Shown here piece by piece: positions 299 through 35,157 of a stretch of 64,000 nt of DNA; within the stretch, counting starts at the first letter, position 1; each line of letters opens with the position of its first letter. The notes under the pieces are model-generated. The model did not search any database, had not been told where the DNA came from, and worked only from the letters and a program-made list of their open reading frames with translations. A program made the position numbers and the translations under genes. The stretch spans positions 8,430 to 72,429 of the forward strand of contig CAVPDN010000011.1 in NCBI GenBank assembly GCA_963702675.1. The letters run 5' to 3'. The stretch is from an uncultured Gemmatimonadaceae bacterium. Lineage in GTDB: Bacteria; Gemmatimonadota; Gemmatimonadetes; Gemmatimonadales; Gemmatimonadaceae.

Positions 299-1913
299 TC
301 ACAGCCTAACGCGCTCCTTGTGCGTCCCGTCCGCCGGCACCACAATCCGCGCCCGATAATCCGCGCAGTAGCTCTTCGACACCCGCAACACATACGCCCC
401 GCTCGGCACCACGATCGGCGTCGCCTGCGGAATCGCCCCACTCGCCACACTCGTCCCATCGACTGTCGAGAGATCCCACCGCGCCCCGTTAGGCTCGGCG
501 TCCACCGTCACGGTGCCACACGGATGCGGCGCCAGCTTCACCCTCACCTCGCCGTGGTCCGGCACCTGCGCGATCGCGCTGTCCGCCGCCCCCGCACACC
601 CCGCAATCGTTTTCACGGCAGCCACCACCCGATGCTCGCCGGCCGCGAACTTGGTCCCGCTCCAATTGCCGTGCCCAACGACCTTCCCATCCACCCGCAC
701 CTGGGCTTCGTTAGGCGCGGCGATGCGCAGGACCGGCGGCGGCGCCGGCGCGGCGGCGGCAGGAGGCGGCGCCTGGGGCACGGTCGCCGAGGCCGACTCC
801 ACATGGGTCGCGGCTGCGTCACCGGCACCGACGCGAGGGTCGAATCGGCGCTTGCGCACACCGGGCGGCGCCGCATGCGCCGCCTCGGCCTTGGCCCGGC
901 TCAGCGCCAGCGCGGAGATGATCGCCACCGCGCCTAACGCACCGCCCGCGGCCACCCACCGCGGCCGGCGCGGCGAAGCGCCGCCACCAGTCGGTCACGA
1001 TCTCCACGCCCGTCTGCACGGCCACGCCCGCGATCGGCGTCGGCATCACCACAGTGGCCTCGCCATCGGGACTCGATGCCCGGCCTAACAACTGAATCAA
1101 CTCGGCGTGGAGGGCGTCGCCGGTTGGGTATCGGGCGCCGGGCTCCTTCTCCAGACACTTGAGCACCACCCGCTCCACCCCGCGCGACAGGGCGGGGTTG
1201 AACGCCCGGGGCCGAGGCGGCAAATCTTCGACGTGCTGCCGCGCGATCTCGTACCAGTCCTCGCCCTGAAACGGCAGCACACCGGTCCCGGCCCGGAACA
1301 ACGTCACGCCTAACGAATAAATGTCGCCCCGACCATCAAGCGGAGCCCGCGCGCCTGCTCGGGCGAGAAATAGTGCGGCGTCCCCACCACCATGTTCGTC
1401 CCGGTCTGCTCCACATACCCGGTCACCGCCCGCGCTATCCCGAAGTCGGCCACGATCGCGTTCCCATGCTCGTCGAACAGAATGTTGTCCGTCTTGATGT
1501 CGCGATGGATCACACCCTCCCGATGCGCGAAGCCCAGTGCGGCGGACACATCCATGCCCAATCTGATGAGCAAGGTCTCGGGCAGCGTGCCCATGATCTT
1601 GAGCCGCTGGTCGAGACTGGTAGGCAAAAAGTCCATCACGAAATAGACGGCCTCGCCTTCGCGACCCACCGCCAGAATCCGGATGATGTTCGGATGCCGA
1701 AGCTTGGCGGCGGTCGACGCCTCGCGCCGAAACCGACTCTCGAAGGTCTCGTCGCCGGCAAACTGCGGCTTGAGTACCTTGATCGCCACCGGGATGTCGA
1801 GCTCAGGGTCGTATCCGCGGTACACCCACGCGAATCCACCCGATGCCGACGATCTCGTCGATGCGGAACCGACCCAGTTGCTTGCCGACGTATCGCTCAG
1901 GCACGGCGCTCAA
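299..1913 (-). pseudogene. Hanks-type Ser/Thr protein kinase with TM helix and PEGA-like C-terminal domain; frame broken at least 3 times
   Basis: ORFs 1310-1825, 819-1307 and 299-955 (-) join into one protein. Kinase motifs VAIKVLK, HRDIKTDNILF, DFGIA, GTPHYFSPEQ. TM segment AAGGALGAVAIISALAL. Frame jumps near 1840, 1315 and 960-990. Probable TTG start at 1913. Confidence 0.8.
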
Positions 1914-14135: not shown

Positions 14136-15394
14136 TGCCGTCGCGTCGCGTGGTCGTGGATGTGCCGCTCGTCCTAACGGCGTTGCTCTTGTCGGCGTAC
14201 GGCATCTCCATGGTGTATTCGGCCGGCCAGACGGACGTGCCCACGTCGGCGACCCACGCGTGGGCGTCGCAGCTCCGCTGGCTCATCCTCGGCTTGGTGG
14301 CGGCGTACGCCATCAGCCGGGCGTCGGTGCGGTTTTTCGAGTGGGCCGCGCTGCCTGCGTATTTGCTCTCGCTCTTGCTCCTGGCGCTCCTTCTGGTGCC
14401 GGGGCTCGGAACCGGCGCCGGCACCGCCGCGAGCCACAAGAGCTGGATCGGCATCGGCGGCGTTCGGTTAGGCCAGCCATCCGAGCTGGCGAAGGTGGCC
14501 GTGGTGCTCATGCTGGCCCGCGTTCTCGCCGCTCGGCGCGAGCCGCCCAAATCGCTGCTCGATTTGTGGCAGCCCGCGCTCGTGGCGTTCCTGCCGTGGG
14601 CGCTGATCATGATGCAGCCGGACCTGGGCACGGGGCTGGTGTTCATCGGCATCTTCTTCGCGATGCTGTACTGGTCGGGCGTGCCGTTGCCGCTGCTCGT
14701 GCTGGTCGCGTCGCCCGCGGTGAGCCTCATCCTCGCGTTCAACACCAGCCTGTGGGGCGCGTGGTTCCTGCTGCTCCTCGCGCTGGTGCTGTGGTACAAG
14801 CCCTTCATGCTCGAGGGCGTCGGCCTCATGACGGCCAACGTCGTGATGGGCGTGGTCGCGCCCATCCTCTGGGAGCGGATGGCGCCCTACCAGCGACACC
14901 GCCTGCTGGTGTTCCTCGACCCGTCGATCGATCCGCGCCGCTCCGGCTAGCACGTGATCCAGTCGCAGGTGGCGATCGGCTCCGGCGGCTGGTTAGGCAA
15001 GGGATTCCTGATGGGCACCCAGAAGCGCCTCGCGTTTCTGCCCGAGCAGCACACCGACTTCATCTTCGCCGTGTTAGGCGAAGAGCTGGGCTTCATCGGC
15101 GTGACGGTCGCGCTGATGCTGTTCCTGTTCCTGTTCCTTCGCTCCGTGCGCATCGCCGAACGCGCCAACGATTCGTTCAGCAGCCTGGTGGCGTTGGGCC
15201 TGTTGTCGAGCTGGTTCGTTCACGTCATCGTGAACGTCGGCATGACGCTGAACCTGATGCCGATCACGGGTATCCCGCTGCCGTTCTTTTCGTATGGCGG
15301 TTCGTTCATGCTGGCGTGCTGGCTGGCGATCGGGCTGTTGTCGCGCGTTTCGAGTGAAGGGCGGGGGGCGAGGGTCGGAGAGCTGGCGATATAG
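14135..15394 (+). pseudogene. rodA: rod shape-determining protein RodA (SEDS family) with an in-frame TAG at 14948-14950
   Basis: ORFs 13976-14950 and 14954-15394 are in the same frame. DPRRSG*HVIQSQVAIGSGGWLGKGF aligns to the conserved GAGYHIIQSKIAIGSGG block (Tyr expected at the stop). LPEQHTDFIFAVLGEELG is present. Confidence 0.88.
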
Positions 15395-15396
15395 CA

Positions 15397-15509
15397 GGGA
15401 AGCGCGCGACTTGCGCGCGCTGAGGGAAGCGGCTGGCGCCTGGGGGAAAGGGGAAGCGGCGGCTTTCCGGTTCCCCGTTCCCCAAGCGAGCGCTCAGCGA
15501 GAGCTTCCC
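15397..15509. repeat. REP-like element, composite copy A (two inverted units)
   Basis: Starts 2 nt after the rodA TAG. Contains GGGAAGCGCGCG-ACTTG-CGCGCGCT, then TGGGGGAAAGGGGAAGCGGCGGC, then an inverted unit TTCCCCGTTCCCCAAGCGAGCGCTCAGCGAGAGCTTCCC. Related to 23819, 29485 and 30075. Confidence 0.8.
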
Positions 15510-15552
15510 GGCTTCCAGAACTGTTGCCCGTCGCTCCGCGCACATTACCTCC

Positions 15553-16414
15553 ATGGCATGGTTCAGAAAGGAAAAGAAACCCCGCCATCCGCGCGGCGAA
15601 AAGCTCGAAATCCCGGCGGACGCGTGGGAAAAGTGCGAGGCATGCGGCCACACCGACTTCCGCGAGAAGTTCATCCGGAATCTCAACGTGTGCCCGAGTT
15701 GCGGCTATCACCGGCGCATCCGCGCGAGCGACTACGTCAACATCCTGCTCGACGACGGGTCCGTCGAGGAACTGGAGGTCGAACTCCGGTCGGTCGATCC
15801 GCTTGGGTTTCCCGATTATCCCTCGCGCCTCAAGAAGGCAATCGCCAAGGCCGGCGACAGGACGCGATCGTCACCGCTGGCGGGACGCTCGGCGAAATGC
15901 CGATCAATTTCGGCGTCATGGATTTCGCTTTCATGGGCGGGTCCATGGGCTCGGTTGTCGGCGAAAAAATCGCGCGGCTTGGACAGCGGTCGCTGGAGAG
16001 CAAATATCCGCTCGATCATCGTGTCTGCGTCGGGCGGCGCGCGCATGCAGGAAGGCATGCTGTCGCTCATGCAGATGGCCAAGACGTCGGCGGTCTTGTC
16101 GCAGCTCGCCGAGCGGCGGATTCCGTACGTTTCGATTCTCACGAATCCAACGATGGGCGGCGTGAGCGCGAGCTTCGCGATGTTCGGCGACGCGATCATC
16201 GCGGAGCCTGGCGCCGTCATCGGTTTTGCCGGGCCGCGCGTCATCAAGCAGACGCTCGGGCAGGATTTACCGGAGGGATTTCAGACGGCGGAATTTTTCC
16301 TCGACCACGGCATGGTTGACTCGTGGTGCATCGGCGCGAACTGAAGAGACGGTCGGCCAATTGCTGCGGCACATGAGCGGAAAGCCGGCGGCGTCAGGGT
16401 GGACATCGGCCTGA
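15553..16414 (+). pseudogene. accD: acetyl-CoA carboxylase carboxyltransferase beta subunit, at least 4 apparent frameshifts
   Basis: Zn ribbon CEACGHTDF...[23 protein letters not shown] is only in the alternate frame (ORF 15294-16319). [10 protein letters not shown] and [12 protein letters not shown] are present. The C-terminus ETVGQLLRHMSG is in a third frame. Confidence 0.85.
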
Positions 16415-17690
16415 CCCAGCGCGTATCGCGAGGCGCTCGAATACTCTCTTCGCTCGCATCAGCGGCGGGTGGAGACTCGGCCTCGACGCGCACGCGCGCG
16501 CTGCTCGCTGCCCTCGGCGATCCGCACTAGGGCTTGCGCTATTCACGTCGGCGGGACCAACGGCAAAGGCAGCGTCGTGGCCACGCTGGACGCGGTGTTG
16601 CGCGCGCAGGGATTTCGCGTTGGCCGATACACCTCGCCGCATCTCGTCGATTTTCGCGAGCGCATCATGGTCGACGGCGTGCCTATCGGCGAAGAGCGGT
16701 GGTCGAGTTCATCGCGCGGTGGACGCCGACAGTGGAACGCTTGGGCGCGACATTCTTCGAGGCGACGACGTGCATGGCGTTCGAGCATTTCGCGCGAGCG
16801 AATGTCGACGTCGTGGTGGTCGAGGTTGGGCTCGGCGGACGGCTCGACTCGACCAATGTCGTGACGCCCGATGCTGCGCGGTCACGACGATCGGTCTCGA
16901 TCATCAGCAGTACCTGGGCGACACCACGGAGGCGATCGCGTTCGAAAAGGCCGGTATCTTCAAGCGCGGCGTGCCGGCGGTCATCGGCGAACCCGATCCG
17001 CGTGATTCGCGCTCTCCTCGCGGCGCTCGCCGCGCAGCCGGGTCGCACGCCTGTGTTGGTCATCCACGACGAGTGGATGCTGCGCGACATTGAGGTCGGC
17101 GCGGGCGGAACATCGTTCACGCTCGGCGCGCCGGGCGTGAGCGCGGTGCACACGCCGCTCGTGGGCCGGTACCAGGCGTCCAACACCGCGAGTGGCGATC
17201 GCGATGCTCGAGTTGGCCGGCGGCCGGTACGCGCAAGCGGCCGCCGACGGCCGGCGACGCGTTGCGGGGCGTCGCGATCCCGGGGCGCTTTCAATGGTGC
17301 GGCAGCGTGATCTTCGACGTGGCGCACAATCCTGCCGGCACCGCCGTGCTGTGCGACGCGCTGTCGACGCTCAGTCCGCCGCGGCCCGTGGTGTGTCTGC
17401 TCACCGTGCTGCGCGACAAGGACTGGCGCGCGATGATGACGACGCTCGCGTCGCACGTCGATCGATTCGTGCTCACGGCGCCGCCGAGCGTTCCCGCGGA
17501 TCGCGCGTGGGTCCTGTCGGAGGCCGTGGAGTTCGCGCGCGCGCACAACTGGCGCGCGGAGGCAGACACCGATTTCGATCGTGCGCTCGACGCGTCGCGC
17601 TCGGGCGCCGCGACGACGCTCATCACGGGCTCGTTCCACACCGTGGGCGATGCGATGTCGCGCTTGCAGGTGTCTCCGTTCGCCGGATAA
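16398..17690 (+). pseudogene. folC: folylpolyglutamate synthase/dihydrofolate synthase, multiple frameshifts and an in-frame TAG at 16528-16530; start uncertain
   Basis: IHVGGTNGKGSVVATL, RYTSPHLVDFRERI, VVEVGLGGRLDSTNVV, TTIGLDHQQYLGDT, PGRFQ and DVAHNPAG are spread over frames 16469-, 16534-, 16620- and 17262-17690. Confidence 0.75.
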
Positions 17691-17700
17691 ATTGCATGCG

Positions 17701-19014
17701 ATGTCCCAGGGAGCCCTACCCGGATTTCGCGATTTCTATCCCGCCGAGCTCGCGGAACGCGCGCACATCTTCGCCACATGGCGTGACGTGGCGCGGCGGT
17801 TCGGGTTCGTCGAGTACGATGGTCCGCCGCTCGAACCGCTCGAGCTGTACACGAAGAAGAGCGGCGACGAGATCGTCGGCCAGCTGTACAACTTTGTCGA
17901 CAAAGGTGAGCGCGAAGTCGCGCTGCGTCCGGAGATGACGCCGACCTTCGCGCGCATGGTGGCGGCGCGGGCGAACGCGCTCCGGAAGCCGGTGCGGTGG
18001 TTCTCGATTCCGCAGTTGTTTCGCTATGAGCGGCAGCAGCGCGGGCGGTTGCGCGAGCACTTCCAGCTCAACATGGACATCGTGGGCGAGCCGATGTCAC
18101 CGCCGACGCCGAGTTGCTCGCCGCGGCGATCGACATCATGCGGCAGTTGGGCCTGGGTCCCGACGACGTGCGCGCGCGTGTGAGTGACCGCCGCATTCTG
18201 CACGGCTACCTGCAGTCGGGCGGCGTCCCCGACGCGGCGATCCACGGCGTCCTCGCGGTGATCGACAAGATCGATCGGCAGCCGCGCACCGTGTCGGAGG
18301 AGAAGCTCGTGGCGCTCGGTCTCGATGCCAAGGCGGTGCGCGCGGTGCTGGACATCCCCGAGCACGCGGAGCCTGGACGCGATCAGAGCGCTCGATCGAG
18401 ACACGATCCGAGCGCGTGGTGGACGAGTTTGTTCGCTTTGCGCACGTACGTCGAGGCGTTAGGCGGCGGCGAGTACCTGCAGCCGGACCTCTCGATCGTG
18501 CGCGGCCTGGCGTACTACACCGGCATCGTCTTCGAGCTGTTCGATGCCCAGGGCGAGCTCCGCGCGATCTGCGGCGGCGGCCGGTACGACACGCTGCTGG
18601 CGCAGAGCGGCGGCCCCGACCTGCCTGCGTTAGGCTTTGGCATGGGCGACGTCGTGTTGGGCGAGCTGTTGCGCGCGCGGGGGCGGATGCCGGCCGCGGC
18701 CGCCGGCCTCGACGTGTGGGTCGCGTTCGGCGACGCCGCCGACGTGTCGCGCGCAATGCGCGTCGCCGCGCGGCTGCGCGAGCGGGGCGTGAGCGTCGAG
18801 TACGCGTTGGGCGGCCAGCAGCTCTCGCGGCAGCTCAAGGCGGCCGGCGCGGCCGGCGCGCGCGATGCGGTCATCGTCGGCGCGCCGAACGTCGGCGACG
18901 GGCGAGGCGACCGTCCGCCGGTTAGGCGACGGCGAGGAGCGCCGCGTCCGCCTCGATGACTGGATCGACGAACTCGGGTCGCGCGCCGCGGCCCGATCAC
19001 CAACACCCTCCTAA
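17701..19014 (+). pseudogene. hisS: histidine--tRNA ligase, at least 3 apparent frameshifts
   Basis: [43 protein letters not shown] and GFGMGD. Pieces lie in ORFs 17581-18183 and 18114-18959, plus a C-terminus read in a third frame ending TAA 19012-19014. Confidence 0.85.
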
Positions 19015-20462
<1,448 letters not shown>

Positions 20463-20466
<4 letters not shown>

Positions 20467-21731
20467 CCGCGGGTTTCGCTCCGGCCGATGGCGCGCTGGC
20501 CTGCGAAGGCGTGCCGCTCGAGGCGATCGCGCGCGAGGTGGGGACGCCGGTGTTCATCTACAGCGCCGGCGCGATCCGCGACGCGTACGCGCGGCTCGAC
20601 CGCGCGCTCGCCCCGGTGCCGCACCGGCTGCACTACAGCGTCAAGGCCAACGCGAACGTCGCCGTCCTGGCGCTCCTCCATTCGTTAGGCGCGGGCGTCG
20701 ACATCGTATCGGGCGGCGAGCTCTACCGGGCGAAATTGGCCGGCCTAACGGGGCCGGACATCGTGTTCAGCGGCGTCGGCAAGACCGAACGCGAGCTGCG
20801 CGAGGCGCTGGCGGCCGGCATCCTGCTGTTCAACGTCGAATCGGAAGGCGAGCTGCGGCTGCTCGACCGCGTCGCGGGCGACATGCGCGTTACCGCGCCG
20901 GTCGCGCTGCGCGTGAACCCCGAGGTGTCGGTGGACACGCCGCACCACTACACGCGCACGGGCGAACGCGGCGACAAGTTCGGCGTACCGTTCCCGGACG
21001 CCCTGGCCGTTGGGCGGTTGGCATGCACGCTGCCGCACACGCGTCTGTTAGGACTCGACATGCACATTGGCTCGCAGGTGTCGAGCGTCGAGCCGTATCG
21101 CGACGGCATTCTGCGCCTGCTCGAGCTGGTGGACGACCTGCGCGCGGCCGGCGCCCAGGACCTGCGATACCTCGACATCGGCGGCGGACTCGGCGTCACC
21201 TACGACACCGAGAATCCGATGGACCTCGACGAGTACGCGGCCACGGTGCTGCCGCACGCCGCCGCGTCCGGACTCAAATTGATCGTCGAGCCGGGCCGGT
21301 ATCTGGTCGGCAACGCCGGCGTCCTGCTGACGCGCGTGCTGTACCGCAAAGAGGGCGGGGGGCGCGAGTTCGTGATCACCGACGCGGGCATGAACGACCT
21401 GCTGCGTCCGTCGCATTACAACGCGTATCACCGCATCGACGCCGTTAGGCCGCGCGGCGGACGGACGCAGGCCGACATCGTCGGTCCGGTGTGCGAGAGC
21501 GGCGACTTCTTCGCGCTGGCCCGCGAGATCGACGACGTGCGCCCGGGCGATCTCCTGGCCATTCGCTCGGCGGGCGCGTACGGGTTCGCAATGTCATCGA
21601 ACTACAATGCGCGCCCGCGGGCCGCCGAAGTGTTGGTGGACGGCGAGCGCTTTGCGGAGATCACGGCGCGCGAGCAGTATGAGGACCTCGTTCGGCACGA
21701 AACCGCCCACCCTTCGTGGAGGAATGCCTGA
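20463..21731 (+). CDS. lysA: diaminopimelate decarboxylase
   Basis: YSVKANANVAVL (PLP Lys), GGGLGV, ITDAGMNDLLRPSHYNAYH, GPVCESGD. Probable TTG start overlapping the proS stop. Confidence 0.88.
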
Positions 21732-22240
21732 TGCTCGTCGGCGTGCTGGCGGACACCCACGATCGCCTGCCGGCGATCGCCGAATTCACGAAGCGCTTCC
21801 GCGAGGCGGGCGTCGGTCTCGTGCTGCACGCCGGCGACTTCTGTGCGTCGTGGTCGCTGCGTCCGATCATCGCGGCCAACCTGGCGTTGGCCGGCGTGTA
21901 CGGCCGCAACGATGGCGACCGCGAAGGCCTGCGCGCCGAAGCGGCGAAGGGCATGGGGACCGAGATCTACGAAGGCCCGCACAGTGTCGAGGTGAACGGC
22001 ACGCGGATTCTGCTCGTGCACGACATCGGCGACGTGAACGAACGCTCCGTGAGCGGACACGGCGTGGTGATCCACGGATACACGCACAAGTGCCGCCGCG
22101 AAGTGACGGGCGACACGCTGCTCCTGAATCCCGGCGAAGCCTGTGGGTGGCTCTACGGCACGCCGGGCGCGGCGCTGCTCGACCTGGACACGAAAGAGGC
22201 TACGTTCATCACGCTCGAGGGCGACCAGTGGCGATGCTGA
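21731..22240 (+). CDS. YfcE/MJ0936-type metallophosphoesterase
   Basis: LVGVLADTHD, HAGDF and GYTHK motifs. ATG overlaps the lysA stop; an alternative GTG start is at 21716. Confidence 0.75.
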   Translation: MLVGVLADTHDRLPAIAEFTKRFREAGVGLVLHAGDFCASWSLRPIIAANLALAGVYGRNDGDREGLRAEAAKGMGTEIYEGPHSVEVNGTRILLVHDIGDVNERSVSGHGVVIHGYTHKCRREVTGDTLLLNPGEACGWLYGTPGAALLDLDTKEATFITLEGDQWRC

Positions 22241-22256
22241 TCCGTTCCGTTAGGCA

Positions 22257-23821
22257 ATGACCCAGCCCGCCGCCTCCCGCATCCTGATCCTCGACTACGG
22301 CTCGCAGTTCACGCAGCTCATCGCGCGGCGGGTCCGCGAGGCGCGCGTCTACTGCGAGATCCATCCGCCCACGCGCTCCATCGAGTGGATTCGCGATTGG
22401 AATCCCACCGGCATCATCCTGTCCGGCGGCCCGGCTCGGTGTACGGCGACGGCGTCGCCGACCGCCGATCCGGCGCTCCTCGACCTCGCGCCGGTGTTGG
22501 GCATCTGCTACGGGATGCATGCTGATCGCCCAACTGGCGGGCGGCGGCGTGACGCGCGCCGGCCGGCGCGAGTACGGCCGGGCCGAGCTCGAGATCGTGA
22601 AACCGCAGGGCGTGTTCGCCGGGTTCACGCCGGGCGAGACGATCACCGTGTGGGCGAGCCACGGCGATCACGTCGAGACGCCTCCGCCTGACTTCGAGGT
22701 GATCGCGCGGAGCGCCAACGCGCCCATCGCCGGGATCCGCCACACGTCGCGGCCGATCTCCGGCGTGCTGTTTCATCCCGAGGTGCCGCACACGCCGCGG
22801 GGCGGCGAGATCATCTCGAACTTCCTCTTCGAGGTCTGCAAGGCCGAGCCCGACTGGACGCCGGGCGCGTTCATCGAGGACGAGGTGATCGCGGATCCGC
22901 GAGCGTGTCGGCTCCGGCGCGCGCGATCTGCGGGCTGTCGGGCGGCGTGGATTCGTCGGTGGCCGCGGCGCTCGTGCACCGCGCGATCGGCGACCGGCTC
23001 ACCTGCATCTTCGTCGATCACGGCCTGCTGCGGCTCCACGAGCGCGAGCAGGTGGAACGCACCTTCCGCGCGCAACCTGGGGATCGACCTGCGTGACGGT
23101 CGACGCCGCCGACCGGTTCCTAACGGCAGCTGGCCGGCGTCGAGGACCCCGAGGAGAAGCGGCGCCGCATCGGCCACACGTTCATCGATGTGTTCGAGGA
23201 CGCCGCCGCGCCACGTGGGCGAGGGCGTCGGAGTTCCTGGTGCAGGGGACGCTGTACCCCGACGTGATCGAGTCGATCTCGCCGCGCGGCGGCCCGTCGG
23301 TGACGATCAAGACGCATCACAACGTCGGCGGCCTCAAGCCGGGCATGCCGTTCAAGCTGATCGAGCCGCTGCGCGAGCTGTTCAAGGACGAAGTGCGCCA
23401 GGTGGGCCGCGAGCTCGGCCTGCCCGAGGAGATGGTCGGCCGCCATCCGTTCCCGGGCCCGGGCCTCGCGATCCGCATTCTGGGCGACGTCACGCGCGAG
23501 AAGCTCGACGTGCTCCGTAAGGCGGATGCGATTTATCTCGAGGAGATTCGCGCGGCCGGCTTGTACGATGACATCTGGCAGGCGTTCGCGGTGCTGCTCC
23601 CGGTGCGCAGCGTGGGCGTGATGGGCGACGGGCGCACGTACGACAACGTGGTCGCGCTCCGCGCGGTGACGAGCTCCGACGGCATGACCGCGGACTGGTT
23701 CCCGTTTCCGCCCGAGGTGCTGGCCAGCATCTCGAGCCGGATCATCAACGAGGTGGATGGCGTGAACCGCGTGGTGTACGACGTGAGCTCGAAGCCGCCG
23801 GCCACGATCGAATGGGAATAG
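22257..23821 (+). pseudogene. guaA: GMP synthase (glutamine-hydrolysing), at least 3 apparent frameshifts
   Basis: [56 protein letters not shown] and the C-terminal PPATIEWE*. Pieces lie in ORFs 22257-, 22519-, 22905- and 23093-23821. Confidence 0.88.
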
Positions 23822-23866
23822 GGAAGCGCGCGCGAGCGCGCGTGGGGAAAAGGGAACGGGGCGGCG
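23819..23866 (+). repeat. REP-like element, copy B
   Basis: TAGGGAAGCGCGCGCGAGCGCGCGTGGGGAAAAGGGAACGGGGCGGCG, beginning with the guaA TAG stop. Confidence 0.8.
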
Positions 23867-23924
23867 CACAAGGGCCAGGACACAACGCTGATAGTTCCAG
23901 CTGTGGCCTAACCGGAGAGGCGGA

Positions 23925-24515
23925 ATGAGGAAGATCAGGATCATCCAACACATCTCGCTCGACGGCGTGATCCAGGCGCCGGGTGGACGGGGCGAAGGCG
24001 GCGACGATTACCCGCATGGCGGATGGACGGCACCGTATCGCGGCGCGGATGGGGCAGCGGCGGTCGTCGAGGCCCAAGGCAGTCGTTTCGATCTGCTCCT
24101 TGGCCGCCGCACCTACGATGTTTTCGCCGGCCACTGGCCCAAGGCAAGCGGTCCGCTCGCCAACGGTCTCAACGCCGCAACGAAATATGTCGCGACACAC
24201 AGGCCAGACAGCCTGGAATGGGGTCCGGTCGGGAACCTGGGCGCGGACGCTATCGCGGGTGTTCGCAGCGTCAAGTCAAAGGACGGTCCAGACCTGATCG
24301 TCTGGGGAAGCTCGACGCTGACGCGCGTGCTGCTGGAGCAGGGGCTGGTCGACGAAATTGTGCTGCTCGTCTACCCGGTGTTTTTAGGCACGGGGAAACG
24401 CTTCTTTGAGAACAGTGCTGCCCCGCGCGAGCTCGCTCTCGTCAGCACCAAGCTGGTGTCCTCGACCGTGCTCGTGAACACATATCGATACGTCGGAGCG
24501 CTGCGAACCGAATAG
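23925..24515 (+). CDS. dihydrofolate reductase-like (RibD C-terminal domain) family protein
   Basis: MRKIRIIQHISLDGVIQAPGG... LLLGRRTYDVFAGHWP ... DLIVWGSSTL pattern typical of this family. SD GGAGAGG upstream. Confidence 0.75.
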   Translation: MRKIRIIQHISLDGVIQAPGGRGEGGDDYPHGGWTAPYRGADGAAAVVEAQGSRFDLLLGRRTYDVFAGHWPKASGPLANGLNAATKYVATHRPDSLEWGPVGNLGADAIAGVRSVKSKDGPDLIVWGSSTLTRVLLEQGLVDEIVLLVYPVFLGTGKRFFENSAAPRELALVSTKLVSSTVLVNTYRYVGALRTE

Positions 24516-24583
24516 ATCATCGAACTTCTTCGTCCACGACATTGCCGAGGATGCACGGCGAAGATTCCGGAGGACTTCCGAGA

Positions 24584-25528
24584 ATGAAGCGCCGGTATGT
24601 CACTGCGGACGTGTTCACGGACGCCATGTTTGGCGGAAACCCCGTCGCCGTCGTACTTGATGCGGAGGGGCTCTCGACGGCCCAGATGCAGTCTCTCGCG
24701 ATGGAGTTCAACTATTCCGAGACGACGTTCGTGCTGCCGCCGCAAAACGCCGCTCACACTGCCAGAGTCCGGATCTTCACGCCTCGCACGGAAGTTCCGT
24801 TCGCTGGACATCCGAATATTGGGACCGCTTTTCTGTTGGCTCGAGAGCGCCGCTCGCGCGGGGAACCGATCGACAAACAGTTTGTGTTCGAAGAGGCTGC
24901 CGGCGCGGTATGCATCACGCTGCTGATCCAGGATGGCGACATCGTTGGCGCGGAGTTGCGCGCGCCGGAAGCGCTCACCCGGCGATCCGTCGTGACTCGA
25001 GAGTCGGCCGCATACTGTTTGTCACTCGAGCCTGATGACATCGCGATAGCGGTCCATCCACCACAGGTCGTGTCGGTCGGACTCCCGTTCCTCGTCGTCG
25101 AGCTTCGTTCACGCGAAACGCTGCGGTGCGCGAAGCCTAACTTGCAGGCCTACGAAGCCCTATTGCCCCTCGACGGCGCGGACGCGGTGTTCGCCTATGT
25201 CCGTGAGGCAGGCCCCGGCCATCGGACAAATGAGACCGTCATTCATGCGCGAATGTTTTCGCCCCTGGACGGCATCGTGGAGGACCCCGCGACCGGAAGT
25301 GCCGCAGCGGCAATGATCGCGCTGCTCACGACGTTGGACCAGCATCCCGCTACAGATCGTCGTTGGCGGATCCATCAAGGTGTCGATATGGGCCGCCCGA
25401 GCCTGTTGCTCGGCCGCTCGACAACCGACGCCGAGGGCCAGGTCGCGGTGGATATCGGGGGACGCTGCGTCGCGGTGCTCGAGGGTGTCGTCGAGCTTGT
25501 CGATCGCCGATCGGCCGCCCTCGCGTAG
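24584..25528 (+). CDS. PhzF family phenazine-biosynthesis-like isomerase
   Basis: YVTADVFTDAMFGGNPVAVVLDAEGLS..MQSLAMEFNYSETTFV and DPATGSAAAA. An alternative upstream start is at 24542. Confidence 0.8.
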   Translation: MKRRYVTADVFTDAMFGGNPVAVVLDAEGLSTAQMQSLAMEFNYSETTFVLPPQNAAHTARVRIFTPRTEVPFAGHPNIGTAFLLARERRSRGEPIDKQFVFEEAAGAVCITLLIQDGDIVGAELRAPEALTRRSVVTRESAAYCLSLEPDDIAIAVHPPQVVSVGLPFLVVELRSRETLRCAKPNLQAYEALLPLDGADAVFAYVREAGPGHRTNETVIHARMFSPLDGIVEDPATGSAAAAMIALLTTLDQHPATDRRWRIHQGVDMGRPSLLLGRSTTDAEGQVAVDIGGRCVAVLEGVVELVDRRSAALA

Positions 25529-25716
25529 ATCGATCGTTAGTGCGCGCCGATTGTTCTGTTCTCCGCGCCGGCAAAACGCGTCGCCTCGCCGAGCGGGCGA
25601 TACCGCGCGATGTCCGCCATGCGCGCAGCCATGGGGCGATTACGCATGACTCGGTCTCCTGCAAATTGACTGCGATGGTGCCCGTAGGCTGGCGCGAAAG
25701 TTCTTCACGCGTCTGC

Positions 25717-26217
25717 CTAACGACGTGAACCGGGCGAACCTGATTGCGTCCGCACTGCGGCCAGGTAGCGGGCGAGCATCTCGGGATCGTCGATCGACCC
25801 GTGGTGGTGAATTTGGCGCCACCGCCCGTCGGCGCGGCGGAACAGCCGCGTCGTTCGAATGGCAAGCTCGAGGAGCTCGCTGCCGCTCTCGAGCCGTCCA
25901 CGCTCGCGCCCGACGACCCAAAACACATCGCCGCTTCGATGCAGCGTATAATCCCAGAATTCGAATGAGTATGCACCTGGTGTGTCGAACAGACGCTCGT
26001 ACGTTTGCCTGATTTGCGTCCAGCCGCGCTTGATACCGCCGAGCGGATTGTCCATTGCTGCTTCAGCCGATCCGTCCCAGTTCTGCTCCATGAGCGCCAG
26101 GTCGCGCGCGTTGATCGCCTTGTAGAATTGTGCCAAGGCCTCAAGAGGCTCAGTGAGTTGGCCCAAGTCTTCCCGACCGGTCACAGGTGCTTGGATCGTA
26201 GGGAAAGCGACTGACAT
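25717..26217 (-). CDS. SnoaL-like / NTF2-fold family protein
   Basis: FYKAINARDLALMEQNWD ... DGRWRQIHHHGS. Strong SD (GAGGAGGAAACC) before ATG 26217. The stop TAG lies inside a GTTAGGC heptamer. Confidence 0.65.
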   Translation of the reverse strand: MSVAFPTIQAPVTGREDLGQLTEPLEALAQFYKAINARDLALMEQNWDGSAEAAMDNPLGGIKRGWTQIRQTYERLFDTPGAYSFEFWDYTLHRSGDVFWVVGRERGRLESGSELLELAIRTTRLFRRADGRWRQIHHHGSIDDPEMLARYLAAVRTQSGSPGSRR

Positions 26218-26378
26218 GGTTTCCTCCTCTTGGCCTGGGTTCGAGGGCGGTCGAGTGCTCTGACGAGTAGCCTGAAATGCGTCCCGCGATTTCGCTTGTG
26301 CAGACGCAAGTTGCATGCGGTCCAAGCGAACGGTTGTGCATGCGGCCGGACCGAGACGTCAACACGGAGCAGGTCGTT

Positions 26379-26765
26379 ATGGCCATCGAACATGTGCAGC
26401 ACGCCACGTTCGTTTTTGAACGTACGAGCAAAGCGCCGGTCGAGCGCGTCTTCGCGGCGCTGGCCAATCCGGTCGAGCGCGCGCAGTGGGGCGTGCCATC
26501 CGAAAAGGCCGCGCTCGTGTACGACCGCGCCGACTTTCGAGAGGGCGGCGAGGACGTGTTTCGCTGCGGACCAAAGGAGAATCCGCAGTATCGCGGCGTG
26601 ACGACCTATCTCGACATCGTGCCGAACGAGCGCGTCGTTGGACAATCTGGTGAAGGCATTGGGCTAACGGGGAGCGGGGAGTATTGTGAGGCCCGCGCCG
26701 TTCTCGCCCGCTTCGACACGCACTCCGATCACGTCGACGTGGTGGACCGACGGACGCAGCCGTAG
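26379..26765 (+). CDS. SRPBCC (AHSA1-like) family protein, possibly C-terminally corrupted
   Basis: FVFERTSKAPVERVFAALANPVERAQW...FRCGPKENPQYRGVTTYLDIVPNERVV is typical. The tail after ~26640 looks non-homologous and short. Confidence 0.55.
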   Translation: MAIEHVQHATFVFERTSKAPVERVFAALANPVERAQWGVPSEKAALVYDRADFREGGEDVFRCGPKENPQYRGVTTYLDIVPNERVVGQSGEGIGLTGSGEYCEARAVLARFDTHSDHVDVVDRRTQP

Positions 26766-26825
26766 GGGAATCGGCGCTGTTGTGTTGCATGCAGGGCAGG
26801 GACTCAGCGCCGGCCGGTGACCGCG

Positions 26826-27347
26826 TCAGAGCTCCGGCCACGACTCCATGTTGGCGTGCATCGGACACTCGTCGCCCGGGCAGACGTTGAAATCGCACAG
26901 ACGGCAGAAGTGACTCACCCCGTACGCGTCCTTGCCTAACGGACGCATGAGTTTTTCGAGGAGCCGCGCGAACTGCTTTTCCTCGGCGGCCGAGAGCGCA
27001 TTGAGATAGCCCTTCACGGCCGCGCACCGCGCCACCAGCACGGGCTGCACGGCTTTGCGCCCCGCCGACGTGAGGTGGAGATGCGTCGCCCGCTTGTCCT
27101 CACCCGCGCGTGCCTCGACATAGCCCTGCGCCTCGAGCTTGTCGACCAAGCGCACCGTGGCCGTGTGTGAGAGATCGAGGGCGCGCGCGAGCTGCGCGTT
27201 GGTGATGCCCTCCCAGTAGCTCATGATGTTGAGCGCGGCGAAGGCCGAGTCGGTCTGATTGGGATGGTCCTTGAGCGCCGCGGTCGCGCGTTCCGTGATT
27301 TCGCCGGCGAAGGCGGCCAGCATGTTGGCGGTTCGTAAGCGGGTCAT
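26826..27347 (-). CDS. MarR family transcriptional regulator with Cys-rich C-terminal extension
   Basis: wHTH ITNAQLARALDLSHTATVRLVDKLEAQGYV. C-terminal CRLCDFNVCPGDECPMH. Confidence 0.82.
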   Translation of the reverse strand: MTRLRTANMLAAFAGEITERATAALKDHPNQTDSAFAALNIMSYWEGITNAQLARALDLSHTATVRLVDKLEAQGYVEARAGEDKRATHLHLTSAGRKAVQPVLVARCAAVKGYLNALSAAEEKQFARLLEKLMRPLGKDAYGVSHFCRLCDFNVCPGDECPMHANMESWPEL

Positions 27348-27371
27348 GGGGCCAAGTTAATCAAGAGGGGG

Positions 27372-27400
27372 TTGACAGCGGCAGAGTGCCTTCCTAAATA
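27372..27400 (+). promoter_or_regulatory. sigma70-like promoter for the DUF417-MFS operon
   Basis: TTGACA (27372-27377), 17-nt spacer, TAAATA (27395-27400), ~50 nt upstream of ATG 27452. Confidence 0.55.
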
Positions 27401-27422
27401 TGTGCGTGTAGCACGCACATAT
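27398..27422. promoter_or_regulatory. perfect 11-bp inverted repeat operator (probable MarR site) overlapping the -10
   Basis: ATATGTGCGTG-TAG-CACGCACATAT, between the divergent marR-like gene and the DUF417-MFS operon. Confidence 0.6.
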
Positions 27423-27451
27423 CAAGTCACCTTCACGGGAGGGACCGCGAG

Positions 27452-27949
27452 ATGACCCCGTTACAGAAATGGACCGTGCCGGCAGGGCAGGTGGTTGCCC
27501 GCTACAGTGTCGCGATGTTCTTCGTGGCGTTCGGCCTGACCAAGTTCACGGCGGCCGAGGCCGCGACGATTCATCCGCTGCTCGTCCACAGCCCGTTCCT
27601 GTTTTGGCTCCCGGGACTGTTCGGGCAGCAGGTGTCGTCCGAGATTATCGGCGTCATCGAGATCGTGATGGGTCTGCTGATGGCGTCGCGCCGGTTTTCA
27701 CCGCGACTCTCGGCCATCGGCAGTTTAGGTATCACGGGCTCCCTGGTGATGACGCTGAGCTTCCTCTTCACCACACCGCATCTCGATCCGGCGCTCGCCA
27801 GCTTCATCGTCAAGGATGTGACCTTGCTCGGCGTCTCGCTCTGGTCGTTCGGCGACGCATTGCAGGCGGCATCGCAATCGACTCGACGCGACCGTGTGGC
27901 ACCCCGCGCTGCCGTGCGTGGTGCACGTGCCATGGTGAACGCGCAATGA
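27452..27949 (+). CDS. DUF417 (YkgB/RclC-like) inner-membrane protein
   Basis: Four TM helices. ARYSVAMFFVAFGLTKFT..EA..I.PLL..SP and FIVKDVTLLGVSLWSFGDAL resemble the YkgB family. Confidence 0.6.
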   Translation: MTPLQKWTVPAGQVVARYSVAMFFVAFGLTKFTAAEAATIHPLLVHSPFLFWLPGLFGQQVSSEIIGVIEIVMGLLMASRRFSPRLSAIGSLGITGSLVMTLSFLFTTPHLDPALASFIVKDVTLLGVSLWSFGDALQAASQSTRRDRVAPRAAVRGARAMVNAQ

Positions 27950-29487
27950 CCGCGTCCGTTGGTGCAGGGCAGGCGACGCGCCGCGAGTGGATCGGTCTCG
28001 CCATCATCGCGCTGCCCTGCATCGTCTACGGGATGGACCTCACGGTCCTGAATCTCGCGGTGCCGTCCATCAGCGCCGCGCTCAAGCCCACGGCAGCGCA
28101 GCTCCTGTGGATCGTCGACGTGTACGGGTTCCTGGCCGCCGGATCGCTGCTGATCATGGGCACGCTCGGCGACCGGATCGGCAGGCGAAAGCTGTTGCTC
28201 ATTGGCTCGGCGTGCTTCGGAGTGCTGTCTGTCGTTGCCGCTTTTTCGCGCAGTGCGCCGATGCTCATTGCCGCCCGCGCGGCGCTCGGAGTTGCCGCGG
28301 CGACGATGGCGCCGTCCACGCTCTCGCTCATCAGCAACATGTTCCGTGACGACCGCGAGAAGACGTTCGCGGTGAGCGTGTGGATCGCCAGCTACTCGTT
28401 CGGCGGCGCGATCGGTCCGGCTATCGGCGGCCTCATTCTCGCCCATTTCTGGTGGGGCGCGGCGTTTCTCGCGCCCGTTCCGGTGATGGCACTCTTGATG
28501 ATCGTTGGGCCGACGCTGCTGCCCGAGTACAAAGCTCCGACCGCCGGGCGCCTCGACCTTGTGAGCGCGGGCTTGTCGCTGGCCTCTGTGCTGCCGGTGA
28601 TTTACGGGGTCAAGCTGGCCGCCCAGGGCGGCAGCGGCAGCGAGTCCGTCGGCGGCATAGTGTTAGGCGTGGTGTTAGGCGTGCTCTTCGTGCGGCGGCA
28701 ATCGCGTCTCGCGCTCCCGCTCCTCGATCTGCGCCTGTTCAGGCGCCCCGCCGTGACGGCCGCGCTCGCCATTTACCTCGCCGACTTTTTCGTCGGATTC
28801 GGCGTCCTCGTGCTGTTCGCGCAATATCTCCAACTGGTGTTGGGACTGTCGCCGCTCGCAGCCGGGCTCTGGAGCACGCCGGGCGGGTTCGGGTTCGCGG
28901 TCGGGTCGATGGCCACGTCCCGTGCCCTTCGTCTCATGCGCCCGGCCCACGTCCTCGGCGCCGGCCTAACGTTAGGCGCGGTGGGGATGGCGGCGATGGC
29001 GCTGGGCGCCGGCGCGCAGAGCCTGACGCTGGTCATCGGCGGCGACGTCCTGTTCGCGCTCGGGGTTGCGCCGTGCACCGCCATCATCGCCGATCTCGTG
29101 GTCAGCGCCGCCCCGGTGGAGCAGTCCGGTGCCGCCGCCGCGCTGAGCGAGGTGGCGTCCGAATTCGGCGGCGCCATGGGCATCGCGCTCCTCGGCAGCC
29201 TGGCAACCCTCGCCTACCGGTCGGCCTTGAGCGCGTCTCTGCCTAACGGACTGCCCGCCGGCGTCGTGGAAACGGCGATGCGCGGCATTGGCGACGCGGC
29301 CAGCCTGCCGCGCAATTTCCCCGGCGCCGCCCAGCTGTTTTCGGCGATACGAGACGCCTACATCGGCGCGACGCAGATTGCGTTTTGGACGGCCGCAGGA
29401 CTGATGCTCGCGGCGGCGATCGGAGCAACGATTGTGTTCGGGAAGCGCCCACCGACGACGGGGAACCAACGCCTGGAGGCGTCTTAG
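27946..29487 (+). CDS. MFS transporter, DHA2 (EmrB/QacA, 14-TMS) family
   Basis: WIGLAIIALPCIVYGMDLTVLNLAVPSI, GTLGDRIGRRKLLLIG. ATGA overlap with the upstream gene. The upstream part of ORF 27469-29487 is out-of-gene read-through. Confidence 0.85.
   Translation: MTASVGAGQATRREWIGLAIIALPCIVYGMDLTVLNLAVPSISAALKPTAAQLLWIVDVYGFLAAGSLLIMGTLGDRIGRRKLLLIGSACFGVLSVVAAFSRSAPMLIAARAALGVAAATMAPSTLSLISNMFRDDREKTFAVSVWIASYSFGGAIGPAIGGLILAHFWWGAAFLAPVPVMALLMIVGPTLLPEYKAPTAGRLDLVSAGLSLASVLPVIYGVKLAAQGGSGSESVGGIVLGVVLGVLFVRRQSRLALPLLDLRLFRRPAVTAALAIYLADFFVGFGVLVLFAQYLQLVLGLSPLAAGLWSTPGGFGFAVGSMATSRALRLMRPAHVLGAGLTLGAVGMAAMALGAGAQSLTLVIGGDVLFALGVAPCTAIIADLVVSAAPVEQSGAAAALSEVASEFGGAMGIALLGSLATLAYRSALSASLPNGLPAGVVETAMRGIGDAASLPRNFPGAAQLFSAIRDAYIGATQIAFWTAAGLMLAAAIGATIVFGKRPPTTGNQRLEAS
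28660..28683 (+). repeat. tandem 12-mer carrying two heptamer copies
   Basis: GTGTTAGGCGTG x2 encoding VLGVVLGV inside the MFS gene. Confidence 0.9.
28964..28977. repeat. perfect 14-bp palindrome made of two abutting heptamers
   Basis: GCCTAACGTTAGGC encoding G-L-T-L-G inside the MFS gene. Confidence 0.9.
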
Positions 29488-29520
29488 GGAAACGCTGCGC
29501 TTGGGGAATTGGGAACGGGT
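29485..29520 (+). repeat. REP-like element, degenerate copy C
   Basis: TAGGGAAACGCTGCGCTTGGGGAATTGGGAACGGGT, beginning with the MFS TAG stop. Confidence 0.65.
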
Positions 29521-29553
29521 CAGGAGACAAAGCGCGCGCAGCTCGCCTAAAGA

Positions 29554-29949
29554 TCAGCGAGCCACTTGCGATTCGGTCGCATCGCAGATGAATACCCGAA
29601 CCTCGACCAGCTTCGTGCCGGTGAAGCGGAAACGCTCGGCGATGTGCATCGTGATGTCGCGCCCGGCCACCCGGACCGCGGAGGTCGAGAAGACGATGTC
29701 GCCGTCGGCGACGACATCGATGAGCGTCCAGGTCTCGAAGTCATAGTAGGTGCGGACTTTGGCGTAGAAGCGCTTGAAGTCTTCGAGGCCCTTGTACGTT
29801 CCGCCGAACGGCAGCGATGCCGGCTCGTGCATCACCAGATCGGGGTCGACGCGGTCGGGATAGTCCTCGAGTCGTTTCTTCTCGCCTAACATCTCGGCGA
29901 TGAAGGCCCGATTGCGATCGGTTGTCGTTTCGGTATGCGTTTCGGTCAT
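29554..29949 (-). CDS. SnoaL-like ester cyclase / NTF2-fold family protein
   Basis: NRAFIAEMLGEKK...DLVMHEP...GGTYKGLEDFKRFY...FRFTGTKLVEVRVF. ATG at 29949. Confidence 0.65.
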   Translation of the reverse strand: MTETHTETTTDRNRAFIAEMLGEKKRLEDYPDRVDPDLVMHEPASLPFGGTYKGLEDFKRFYAKVRTYYDFETWTLIDVVADGDIVFSTSAVRVAGRDITMHIAERFRFTGTKLVEVRVFICDATESQVAR

Positions 29950-30074
29950 GTGCTCACCACGCGCTGCGCGCCGTTGGGCACGCAGCCACGGGGAAGCCGA
30001 ATGCGTGCCGGAACGCGGTGGAGCAGGGCAAACGCCGGGCCGCTCAGGCGCAGAAGCGCAGGAACACCGGAACA

Positions 30075-30148
30075 GGGAACGGGGAAGGGCGTCGCCGCCG
30101 CTTCCCCGTTCCCGTGTCCCCAAGCGCGCGCGAGCGCGCGCTTCCCTA
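30075..30148 (-). repeat. REP-like element, copy D (two perfect hairpins)
   Basis: On the minus strand it follows the TAG of the Zn-ribbon gene: TAGGGAAGCGCGCGCTCGCGCGCGCTTGGGGACACGGGAACGGGGAAG-13nt-CTTCCCCGTTCCC. Stems are 30122-30130/30135-30143 and 30075-30087/30101-30113. Confidence 0.85.
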
Positions 30149-34799: not shown

Positions 34800-35151
34800 G
34801 GGGGCGACTGGTTTCGACGGGGTAGGTGAAGGGGTGGCCGCGTGCCCAGGTCCTCGAGCCCTGGTAAATCACTCGGGAAATTTTTAACTGCCAACAACAA
34901 CTTGGCTCTGGCTGCGTAACTTCGGTTACAGCACCTGCCCGACGGGAAGCTCGCCTGAGGCGGCCTGACGGGTAACGAAAATTCGGGCTAGCGTACCGTT
35001 GTGTCTTCTGACGGCGCGCGAAGTCAAAGAAGACTTGTCCAGCAGTGGGCCGCCCATTGGCCAGCGGCTGGAGACCTCAACCGATGGGCTACGCACGTAG
35101 ACGTTGCTTCGGATCTTGTCTCGGACCGGGGTTCGAATCCCCGCGCCTCCA
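34800..35151 (+). ncRNA. ssrA: tmRNA (SsrA); tag peptide ANNNLALAA
   Basis: 5' GGGGGCGACUGGUUUCGACGGGG pairs with 3' ...CGCCUCC-A, with a G3:U wobble pair. T-arm GGGGUUCGAAUCCCC. Tag ORF GCC AAC AAC AAC TTG GCT CTG GCT GCG TAA at 34890-34919. CCA is not encoded. Confidence 0.93.
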
Positions 35152-35157
35152 CTGCCT

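Follow-up and report, generated by a model that had tools for sequence, protein, structure and literature searches.

The DNA analysed here is a 64,000-nt (64 kb) window from an uncultured Gemmatimonadaceae bacterium. It contains the 3' ends of rodA, guaA, a gene for a major facilitator superfamily (MFS) transporter, and a gene for a zinc-ribbon (Zn-ribbon) protein, and each of these four genes is followed directly by a GC-rich palindromic repeat, which is the subject of this analysis. (Coordinates are positions in the window unless a locus name, L0xx, is given.) The host is from soil, and the sequencing runs that contain the window are soil metagenomes. An earlier note, made from the letters of the window alone, had described the repeat at these four loci as starting at, or within 3 nt of, a TAG stop codon. 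All four loci were found where the note had placed them, and the heads of the elements do lie that close to a TAG, with offsets of 2 (rodA), -1 (guaA), -1 (MFS), and -1 (Zn-ribbon). The four TAG codons are genuine gene ends (Table 1).

Table 1. Stop codons and copies of the repeat element in the window
Feature	Coordinates	Strand	Description
rodA TAG stop	15392..15394	+	Pfam FTSW_RODA_SPOVE positions 221-353 of 356 in open reading frame 14954-15394
Copy A1	15397..15464	+	Two head modules (GGGAAGCGCGCGActtGCGCGCGCTGA, then GGGAAGCGGCTGGCGCCT) and G-tract tail
Copy A2	15455..15509	-	Inverted tail-to-tail partner of A1; 52.8 bits, E 1.7e-11
guaA TAG stop	23819..23821	+	GMP_synt_C profile ends at ..IEWE*, the native C-terminus
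Copy B	23821..23872	+	Solo; head hairpin and G-tract tail, without C-rich return arm; 54.9 bits
MFS gene TAG stop	29485..29487	+	MFS_1 domain; junction ..gcgtctTAG|GGAAACG, fused to head
Copy C	29487..29531	+	Solo; short-hairpin module (GGGAAACGCTGCGCTT) and G-tract tail; 35.5 bits, E 5e-07
Copy D'	30037..30095	+	Degenerate inverted partner of D; 19.7 bits, E 0.006
Copy D	30093..30146	-	Top-scoring copy in the window; long head hairpin and G-tract tail; 70.4 bits, E 5e-16
Zn-ribbon gene TAG stop	30146..30148	-	Zn_ribbon_9 match; orthologues end in ..YYTD*; fused to head

After rodA, the head begins 2 nt past the stop (..gcgataTAGca|GGGAAG), and after guaA, the G of the stop codon doubles as the initial G of copy B's head. 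Copies A1 and A2 lie tail to tail, so copy A is a back-to-back inverted pair, as the earlier note had it. A1 (in which 15424-15464 scores 22 bits with the covariance model described below) is the left arm of the hairpin predicted for this pair (-70.4 kcal/mol, z = -3.6). A2 has no gene upstream of it in its own orientation, and the start of accD lies 43 nt beyond it. Copy D is part of a tail-to-tail pair too, through D', and this pair has a predicted fold of -77.3 kcal/mol (z = -5.1). D' has a C-rich complement that pairs with the tail of D (a perfect 13 bp) and a weak head hairpin of its own (GCGCagaaGCGC). The second 13-bp hairpin that had been described as perfect in both A and D is perfect in D but has one mismatch in A (GGGGAAAGGGGAA versus GGGGAACGGGGAA). 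Two of the loci, A and D, thus have pairs, and the other two, B and C, have solo copies, for which the head hairpin alone is predicted. Copy B is kept, with one difference, at the orthologous guaA locus L014 (SMAG_U4026). The MFS and SnoaL genes on either side of copy C are convergent.

The tail pattern has nine matches in the window, versus 0.91 expected, and the head pattern has four, versus 0.51 expected. These counts are so far over expectation that chance is excluded as the source of the shared sequence. A covariance model built from 12 copies and run with filters off gave nothing below E = 0.1 outside the four loci in the whole window.

The sequence of the window looks error-prone, as judged by indels in guaA and an in-frame TAG in rodA, so single-base details need caution. 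guaA (22257-23821) is split over three reading frames, apparently by errors in the assembly or because the gene is decaying. Relative to the intact orthologue in L014, which encodes 517 amino acids, it differs by ten single-base indels at scattered positions (nine bases gained, one lost) and additionally by 6 nt, in frame, close to the start. In rodA, the TAG at 14948-14950 aligns with a conserved Trp codon (TGG) of the orthologue in L026, and the two halves of the gene match positions 5-192 and 221-353 of the RodA profile. This internal TAG is a nonsense mutation or a sequencing error. An exact look-up of the window's Zn-ribbon protein gave no match.

Each element is a mosaic of one to four chained modules and a G-tract tail (GGGGAAnnGGGAACGGGG), which is often followed by GGAAYAACATCRATGGTCTGCG. 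A module is 17-30 nt long and consists of GGG(G)AA, a GC-rich palindrome, and then TT or TGA. Three kinds of palindrome recur: a long kind (GCGCGCGC-nnn-GCGCGCGC), a short kind (GCGCT(G)GCGC), and a third kind (GCGGCGGC-GAC-GCCGCC), in place of which variant palindromes are also seen. The linkers between modules are TGA|GGGAA (nine cases) or TTG|GGGAA (nine cases), and the TTA type was seen once. The paired form is commoner than the solo form, with at least 20 tail-to-tail pairs. The pairs span 103-339 bp, and their arms are conserved but the 45-60 nt at the centre are not; the whole pair folds as an imperfect hairpin. At L042 (1162-1260), a long head hairpin is followed by at least three tandem units of a 17-nt short-hairpin module (GGGGAAGCGCTGCGCTT).

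The earlier note had also speculated that the G-tracts around the hairpin could fold as a G-quadruplex. We considered that a quadruplex of RNA or of non-template DNA, with the GC hairpin as a long loop, might pause the polymerase or regulate stability. The sense strand is always the G-rich strand, and 12 of 41 copies have four tracts of at least three Gs with loops of at most 7 nt; in nine of these 12, the quadruplex is part of the minimum-free-energy fold. However, the canonical four-tract motif is absent from 29 of the 41 copies, and none of the five window copies has it. (The whole window has one such motif, versus about two expected.) Also, the G-rich tail of a paired copy is predicted to pair with its C-rich partner instead, and the order of the modules and the length of the tail vary widely. 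We therefore consider a quadruplex to be very unlikely as the function of the element.

The element is found at the 3' ends of genes. Of the 20 called genes with an element behind them, 16 have its head at -1 to +11 nt past the stop of a co-oriented, coding-like open reading frame (ORF). In the other four, a partial extra module lies in between, or the ORF enters the element and stops in the loop of the hairpin. The G-rich strand is the sense strand. In L036, the head begins 1 nt after tRNA-Ser(GCT), which is the last gene of a cluster of two tRNAs. In tandem contexts (A, B, and D in the window), the element sits right at the upstream stop, but 43-87 nt separate it from the next start. Overall, 17 clusters are between tandem genes, nine are between convergent genes, and three appear to be between divergent genes, although these three are doubtful. 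All of the copies are outside of called ORFs or at their very end, and the partner copies in pairs mostly lack an upstream gene of their own. The adjoining genes are ordinary: besides rodA, guaA, and the MFS transporter, they include lspA, map, acnA, a histidine kinase, and others. In L011, elements part the unrelated co-directional genes lspA, map, and acnA from each other. The window also contains a gene for transfer-messenger RNA (tmRNA) at 34800-35154 (156 bits with Rfam; tag peptide ANNNLALAA), and no copy of the element follows it.

The relationship to TAG is looser than an anchor. With stricter gene calls, which were used for the background counts of stop codons, the stops before the element (n = 20) are 12 TAG, 5 TGA, and 3 TAA, and the stops without an element (n = 117) are 66 TGA, 29 TAG, and 22 TAA. 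Thus TAG is enriched at the junction (12/20 versus 29/117, odds ratio 4.6, p = 0.003) and TGA is depleted (p = 0.014). This statistical part of the earlier claim stands, but copies are also found after TAA, after TGA, and after a tRNA gene, and most TAG-terminated genes have no element. Orthologous junctions read TAA|GGGAAG in L018, TAG|GGAAG in L038, and TGA|GGGAAG in L011; similarly, TGAgatcg|GGGAAG in L024 corresponds to TAG|GGAAG in L041. Given these orthologues and the copy next to the tRNA, TAG does not belong to the element, and its link to the element is a junction effect, a statistical tendency.

In about half of the TAG cases, the junction is fused, with the G of TAG serving as the first G of the head. 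TAG is the only stop codon that can overlap a head that begins with G, which is why the fused junctions are TAG. The excess of TAG arises mainly because the head's run of Gs, directly after TA, makes the fused junction read as TAG. Two other explanations were rejected. The stop does not derive from the usual linker between modules, because these linkers are TGA or TTG, and the TTA type, which would give TAG, was seen just once. Insertion into an IS5-like YTAR target or a TA target does not fit either, as a pyrimidine does not consistently precede TAG and the far end shows no duplication.

The nearness of the hairpin to the stop raises another explanation, which is that a stable hairpin right after the stop (UAG especially) modulates termination, read-through, or ribosome stalling in the upstream gene. 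Such an effect was reportedly described by Liang, Rudd and Deutscher in 2015 for repetitive extragenic palindromic (REP) sequences of E. coli that lie within ~15 nt of the stop. A head at -1 to +11 nt from the stop would fall inside the footprint of the terminating ribosome. The enrichment of TAG and the depletion of TGA fit this explanation as well, as do the ORFs that extend into the element as far as a TAG in the loop of its head hairpin and a protein (P0008) that reads through into element-like sequence. On the other hand, one head begins just 1 nt past a tRNA gene, where there is no translation; orthologous copies are preceded by any of the three stops (TAA, TAG, TGA); the partner copies in pairs have no upstream gene; and most TAG genes have no element. 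A role in translation seems quite improbable to us, and the TAG "anchor" is not a recoding signal or a stop-specific signal.

The ORFs that stop at the TAG in the loop (GCGCGCTAGCGCGCGC) are at L011 6401-6403, L018 near 755-757 (- strand), L039 6007-6009, and L042 1175-1177. P0008 is a relative of the Zn-ribbon protein; its gene lacks the stop, and the translation continues into the element-like sequence (..YYTDSGKGSLTLAEGSAGAGRRGKRR).

We found further copies in relatives of the host. In a collection of genomes, scanned with a search pattern that left out the TAG, there were 25 loci. Ten of these loci (with 11 matches) are from three soil metagenome-assembled genomes (MAGs) of Gemmatimonadaceae, and the other 15 are single matches in scattered taxa. 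Scanning soil metagenomes with the head hairpin as the search pattern gave ten further contigs. With the covariance model, the MAG loci give 41 matches and the metagenome contigs give 44. The window has four loci in 64 kb, and the other loci have roughly one extra cluster per 12 kb.

As a sister-lineage set, we used Zn-ribbon orthologues at 77-89% identity together with their flanks, or 64 kb of sequence. The covariance model found no copies in these 64 kb, which include the orthologous spacer between the Zn-ribbon gene and guaA. Because this set lacks any copy, we conclude that the family is confined to one sub-lineage of the Gemmatimonadaceae; in other lineages, different palindromes take its place in these 3'-end spacers. 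In L026, the Zn-ribbon gene and guaA are convergent neighbors with a plain spacer, and both stops are TGA. In L032, the spacer has a classical series of A-tract, hairpin, and T-tract that is enclosed by a long inverted repeat. In L029 (3070-3310, identical in L031; the Zn-ribbon protein is 87% identical), the spacer has GTAG-rich G-tract units (CGTAGCGAGTAGGGGAC...) that are arranged tail to tail, and this repeat may belong to the REPs that have a classical GTAG foot. Two of the unrelated matches from the genome scan, in Rhodanobacter (L001 1073-1190) and in a MAG from the Proteobacteria (L019, near 2010-2120), are long hairpins of GGGAAC or GGGGAAC repeats. They adjoin the 5' end of a gene whose product has an N-terminus (GFTLLEML) like that of a type IV pilin. 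Their G-tract motif is similar, but they are a different type of repeat.

The element could be selfish, similar to the REP doublets that form hairpins (REPINs) or to miniature inverted-repeat transposable elements (MITEs), and copied by a single-copy transposase of the REP-associated tyrosine transposase (RAYT) type or by another transposase, with the gene for it elsewhere in the genome. Its sites at 3' ends would then reflect tolerated or targeted insertion, with no function for the host. The head hairpin is 95.3% paired across 39 copies, and none of the changes in it are compensatory. Conservation as sequence, without compensatory change, points to copy-and-paste spread (RAYT-like or other) or to a sequence-specific factor. 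The mix of singlets, complex clusters, and inverted doublets whose spacers vary matches the description of REPINs (PMC3337134). Restriction to one sub-lineage, with absence from its sisters, and a density of about one cluster per 12-16 kb also speak for a selfish element.

However, we found no homologue of RAYT in the DNA searched for a transposase (six-frame ORFs from 395 kb): the best hit of phmmer, with the E. coli TnpA-REP (PDB 4ER8_A) as the query, had E = 0.49, and a scan of this DNA for RAYT motifs was negative as well. As RAYTs are typically single-copy per genome, according to PMC5581495, one could lie outside of these sequences. No transposase lies beside any copy. A gene in L011 that is bracketed by two clusters was considered as a candidate, and it encodes methionine aminopeptidase. 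The inverted arms are as expected for a MITE, but neither A (flanked by tagca / ggctt) nor D has a target-site duplication. We also saw no presence/absence polymorphism. All of the orthologous sets examined (L018/L038/L011, L024/L041, and window copy B/L014) keep the element, and its absence was seen only in lineages that lack the family altogether. Finally, neutral insertion does not predict heads that are flush with the stop or solo copies in the sense orientation. A purely selfish element is possible, but we think it is unlikely.

Another idea is that the element is a signal in DNA, such as a lineage-specific uptake or recombination sequence, or a site for a nucleoid-, gyrase-, or IHF-type protein. 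Compared to SMAG_U4026 (L014), the window is ~92% identical in core genes and ~99% identical over ~1 kb (23810-24840), starting where guaA stops and copy B has its head. Divergence is 7.5% in the last 510 nt of guaA, 1% in the tract, and ~5% past it, and the homology stops near 25600. This suggests a recent recombination event that started at the element, in a single case. The variable accessory segment of about 6 kb that is bounded by copies B and D, and the different repeat "dialect" in the same spacer of a sister lineage, are also compatible with such a signal. But the other end of the recombination tract lies in a gene without an element. Furthermore, one copy per 12-16 kb is far below the density of known uptake sequences, and sites that are strictly extragenic, flush with stops, and sense-oriented point to transcripts instead. 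We give a DNA-level signal very little credence.

The accessory segment (23925-30145, ~6.2 kb) lies between guaA and the Zn-ribbon gene and has a lower GC content. Its genes encode RibD_C, PhzF, SnoaL_3, AHSA1, MarR, MFS, and SnoaL_2 proteins. guaA and the Zn-ribbon gene are direct convergent neighbors in L026, L027, and L029, and other cargo lies between them in L028 and in the contig of P0006. The site looks like a hotspot of variable content that is bounded by copies B and D.

It is near certain that the element is a lineage-restricted interspersed mosaic palindromic repeat family that is placed at 3' ends. The earlier note's view of it as a lineage-specific repeat of the REP or BIME (bacterial interspersed mosaic element) type at gene 3' ends is borne out by the extragenic palindromes, the prevalence of inverted pairs, and the copies in relatives. 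The note had doubted the family if no more copies were to be found, and they were. A literature search turned up no description of REP-type repeats in Gemmatimonadetes. The family is new, and the kind of repeat, REP/BIME-like, is already known.

In E. coli, REP and BIME sequences block 3'-to-5' exonucleases, and so protect the 3' ends of mRNAs, and they attenuate transcription. Similarly, we propose that the element is a REP/BIME/REPIN-like repeat, functionally nearest to the TRIT terminators of mycobacteria, that acts as RNA structure at 3' ends. The upstream RNA would have the transcribed element as its 3' end, and the very stable GC hairpins of the element would form a 3'-terminal structure. 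The effect of this structure would be attenuation or termination of transcription, with no need for a U-tract, or a block to 3'-to-5' exonucleases, or both. The position, polarity, and stability of the element make a role at the transcript's 3' end the most likely one. Because the function at the level of RNA is inferred, we hold the full proposal only somewhat more firmly than its alternatives taken together.

Several observations weigh against our proposal. As the earlier note had said, the element lacks a U-tract: TTGGGG follows the head hairpin, and no U-tract was found after the head or after the pair except in L024 and L041. (Five Ts in 8 nt are reached by 7 of 44 outer flanks, and a true T-tract is seen only in these two orthologues.) The RNA polymerase of mycobacteria requires a U-tract at intrinsic terminators, according to PMC3993855. 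In M. tuberculosis, Term-seq found that each type of predicted terminator, including TRIT, overlaps only 2-4% of the mapped 3' ends (10.1101/2022.06.01.494293). Four soil metatranscriptomes, which had been located with the tmRNA as bait, gave only short matches of 90-95% to conserved genes, and these carried no information about 3' ends. The head hairpin showed no covariation, so its structure is not independently supported. The gene calls in the MAG loci are from a crude method based on GC content at third codon positions (GC3). And in L033 (1817-1894), a G-tract variant without a hairpin (GGGAAATCGGGAATGGGGAATGGGGAAGAGGGAC) occupies the rplE-rpsN spacer of the spc operon for ribosomal proteins, and complete termination at that site is implausible.

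In L024 (706-725) and L041 (3174-3193), the inverted doublet is followed by ATTATTTTTT on the + strand, and the arrangement resembles a canonical terminator of hairpin plus U-tract. Canonical terminator patterns are not enriched between 13 and 33 kb of the window (12 versus 11.7 expected from shuffling).

The closest functional parallel is TRIT. PMC3152330 describes 147 copies of this palindrome, conserved in sequence and mostly bidirectional, in a single genus (Mycobacterium), with a very narrow distribution around the nearest stop codon; given the high sequence conservation, its authors proposed a binding factor. Like TRIT, our element is a palindrome at gene termini that is conserved in sequence and structure, in a high-GC bacterium with few canonical terminators. 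It is also mostly bidirectional, narrowly distributed relative to the stop, and limited to a single lineage. However, the sequences are unrelated and the host is from the Gemmatimonadaceae; the resemblance is functional and positional only. TRIT is centered at about -8, inside the end of the coding sequence, whereas our element starts at -1 to +11, and our element has several types of modules, a G-tract tail, and long inverted pairs. Given the 2-4% overlap with mapped 3' ends, TRIT's own activity as a terminator is doubtful. Rfam contains no matching family at the gathering threshold or at permissive thresholds, which gave only miRNA-like hairpin noise.

The REP, BIME, and REPIN sequences of Enterobacteria and Pseudomonas (PMC3337134, PMC3116915) are short imperfect GC-rich palindromes that are extragenic and multicopy, as is our element. 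They share with it mosaic clusters in alternating orientation, conserved linkers, inverted doublets that form long hairpins, copy-specific spacers, and sites after genes and between co-directional genes. REPINs in particular have conserved inverted arms that form hairpins around a spacer that differs in every copy, and they also occur as singlets and in complex clusters (PMC3337134). But our element lacks the 5' tetranucleotide of the GTAG type and has GGG(G)AA as its constant flank. (We considered GTAG as a REP-like foot, but it is present at only 3 of 9 TAG junctions, where the last codon happens to supply it.) It also differs in having heads that are flush with the stop, marked polarity with G-rich tails on the sense strand, and no RAYT in 395 kb.

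As in canonical intrinsic terminators, a GC-rich hairpin lies directly downstream of genes, including a tRNA cluster, and the pairs would act in both directions; unlike these terminators, our element has no U-tract of 7-9 nt, and its copies share sequence besides shape. Inverted pairs of DNA uptake sequences (DUS) in Neisseria and elements of the Correia/MITE type can serve as terminators or as processing sites. These too are lineage-specific repeats that often form inverted pairs downstream of genes. Compared to DUS, our element is far sparser and was never seen inside genes, and compared to Correia/MITE elements, it lacks a TA target duplication and terminal repeats that match a known insertion sequence (IS).

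Instead of acting as RNA structure by itself, the GGGAA-plus-palindrome modules might be recognition sites for a protein, specific to the lineage, by which transcripts are ended or processed with no need for a U-tract. Candidates for such a protein are a factor-dependent, sequence-specific system for termination or 3'-end formation, of the sort speculated about for TRIT, or an RNA regulator of the CsrA type that binds GGA, with the element as its platform. We consider this improbable. If it is true, then sister lineages would use other repeat "dialects" in the same spacers.

Gemmatimonadota are abundant in soil and have few cultured members. In the sub-lineage described here, a sizeable share of transcription units is marked at the 3' end by one recognizable sequence. 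The element can therefore be used as a landmark for annotating gene ends and operon boundaries in MAGs. It also offers a way to test for U-tract-independent termination or for 3'-end protection in a high-GC phylum, and it is the second case, after the mycobacterial TRIT, of a stop-proximal palindrome that is conserved in sequence.

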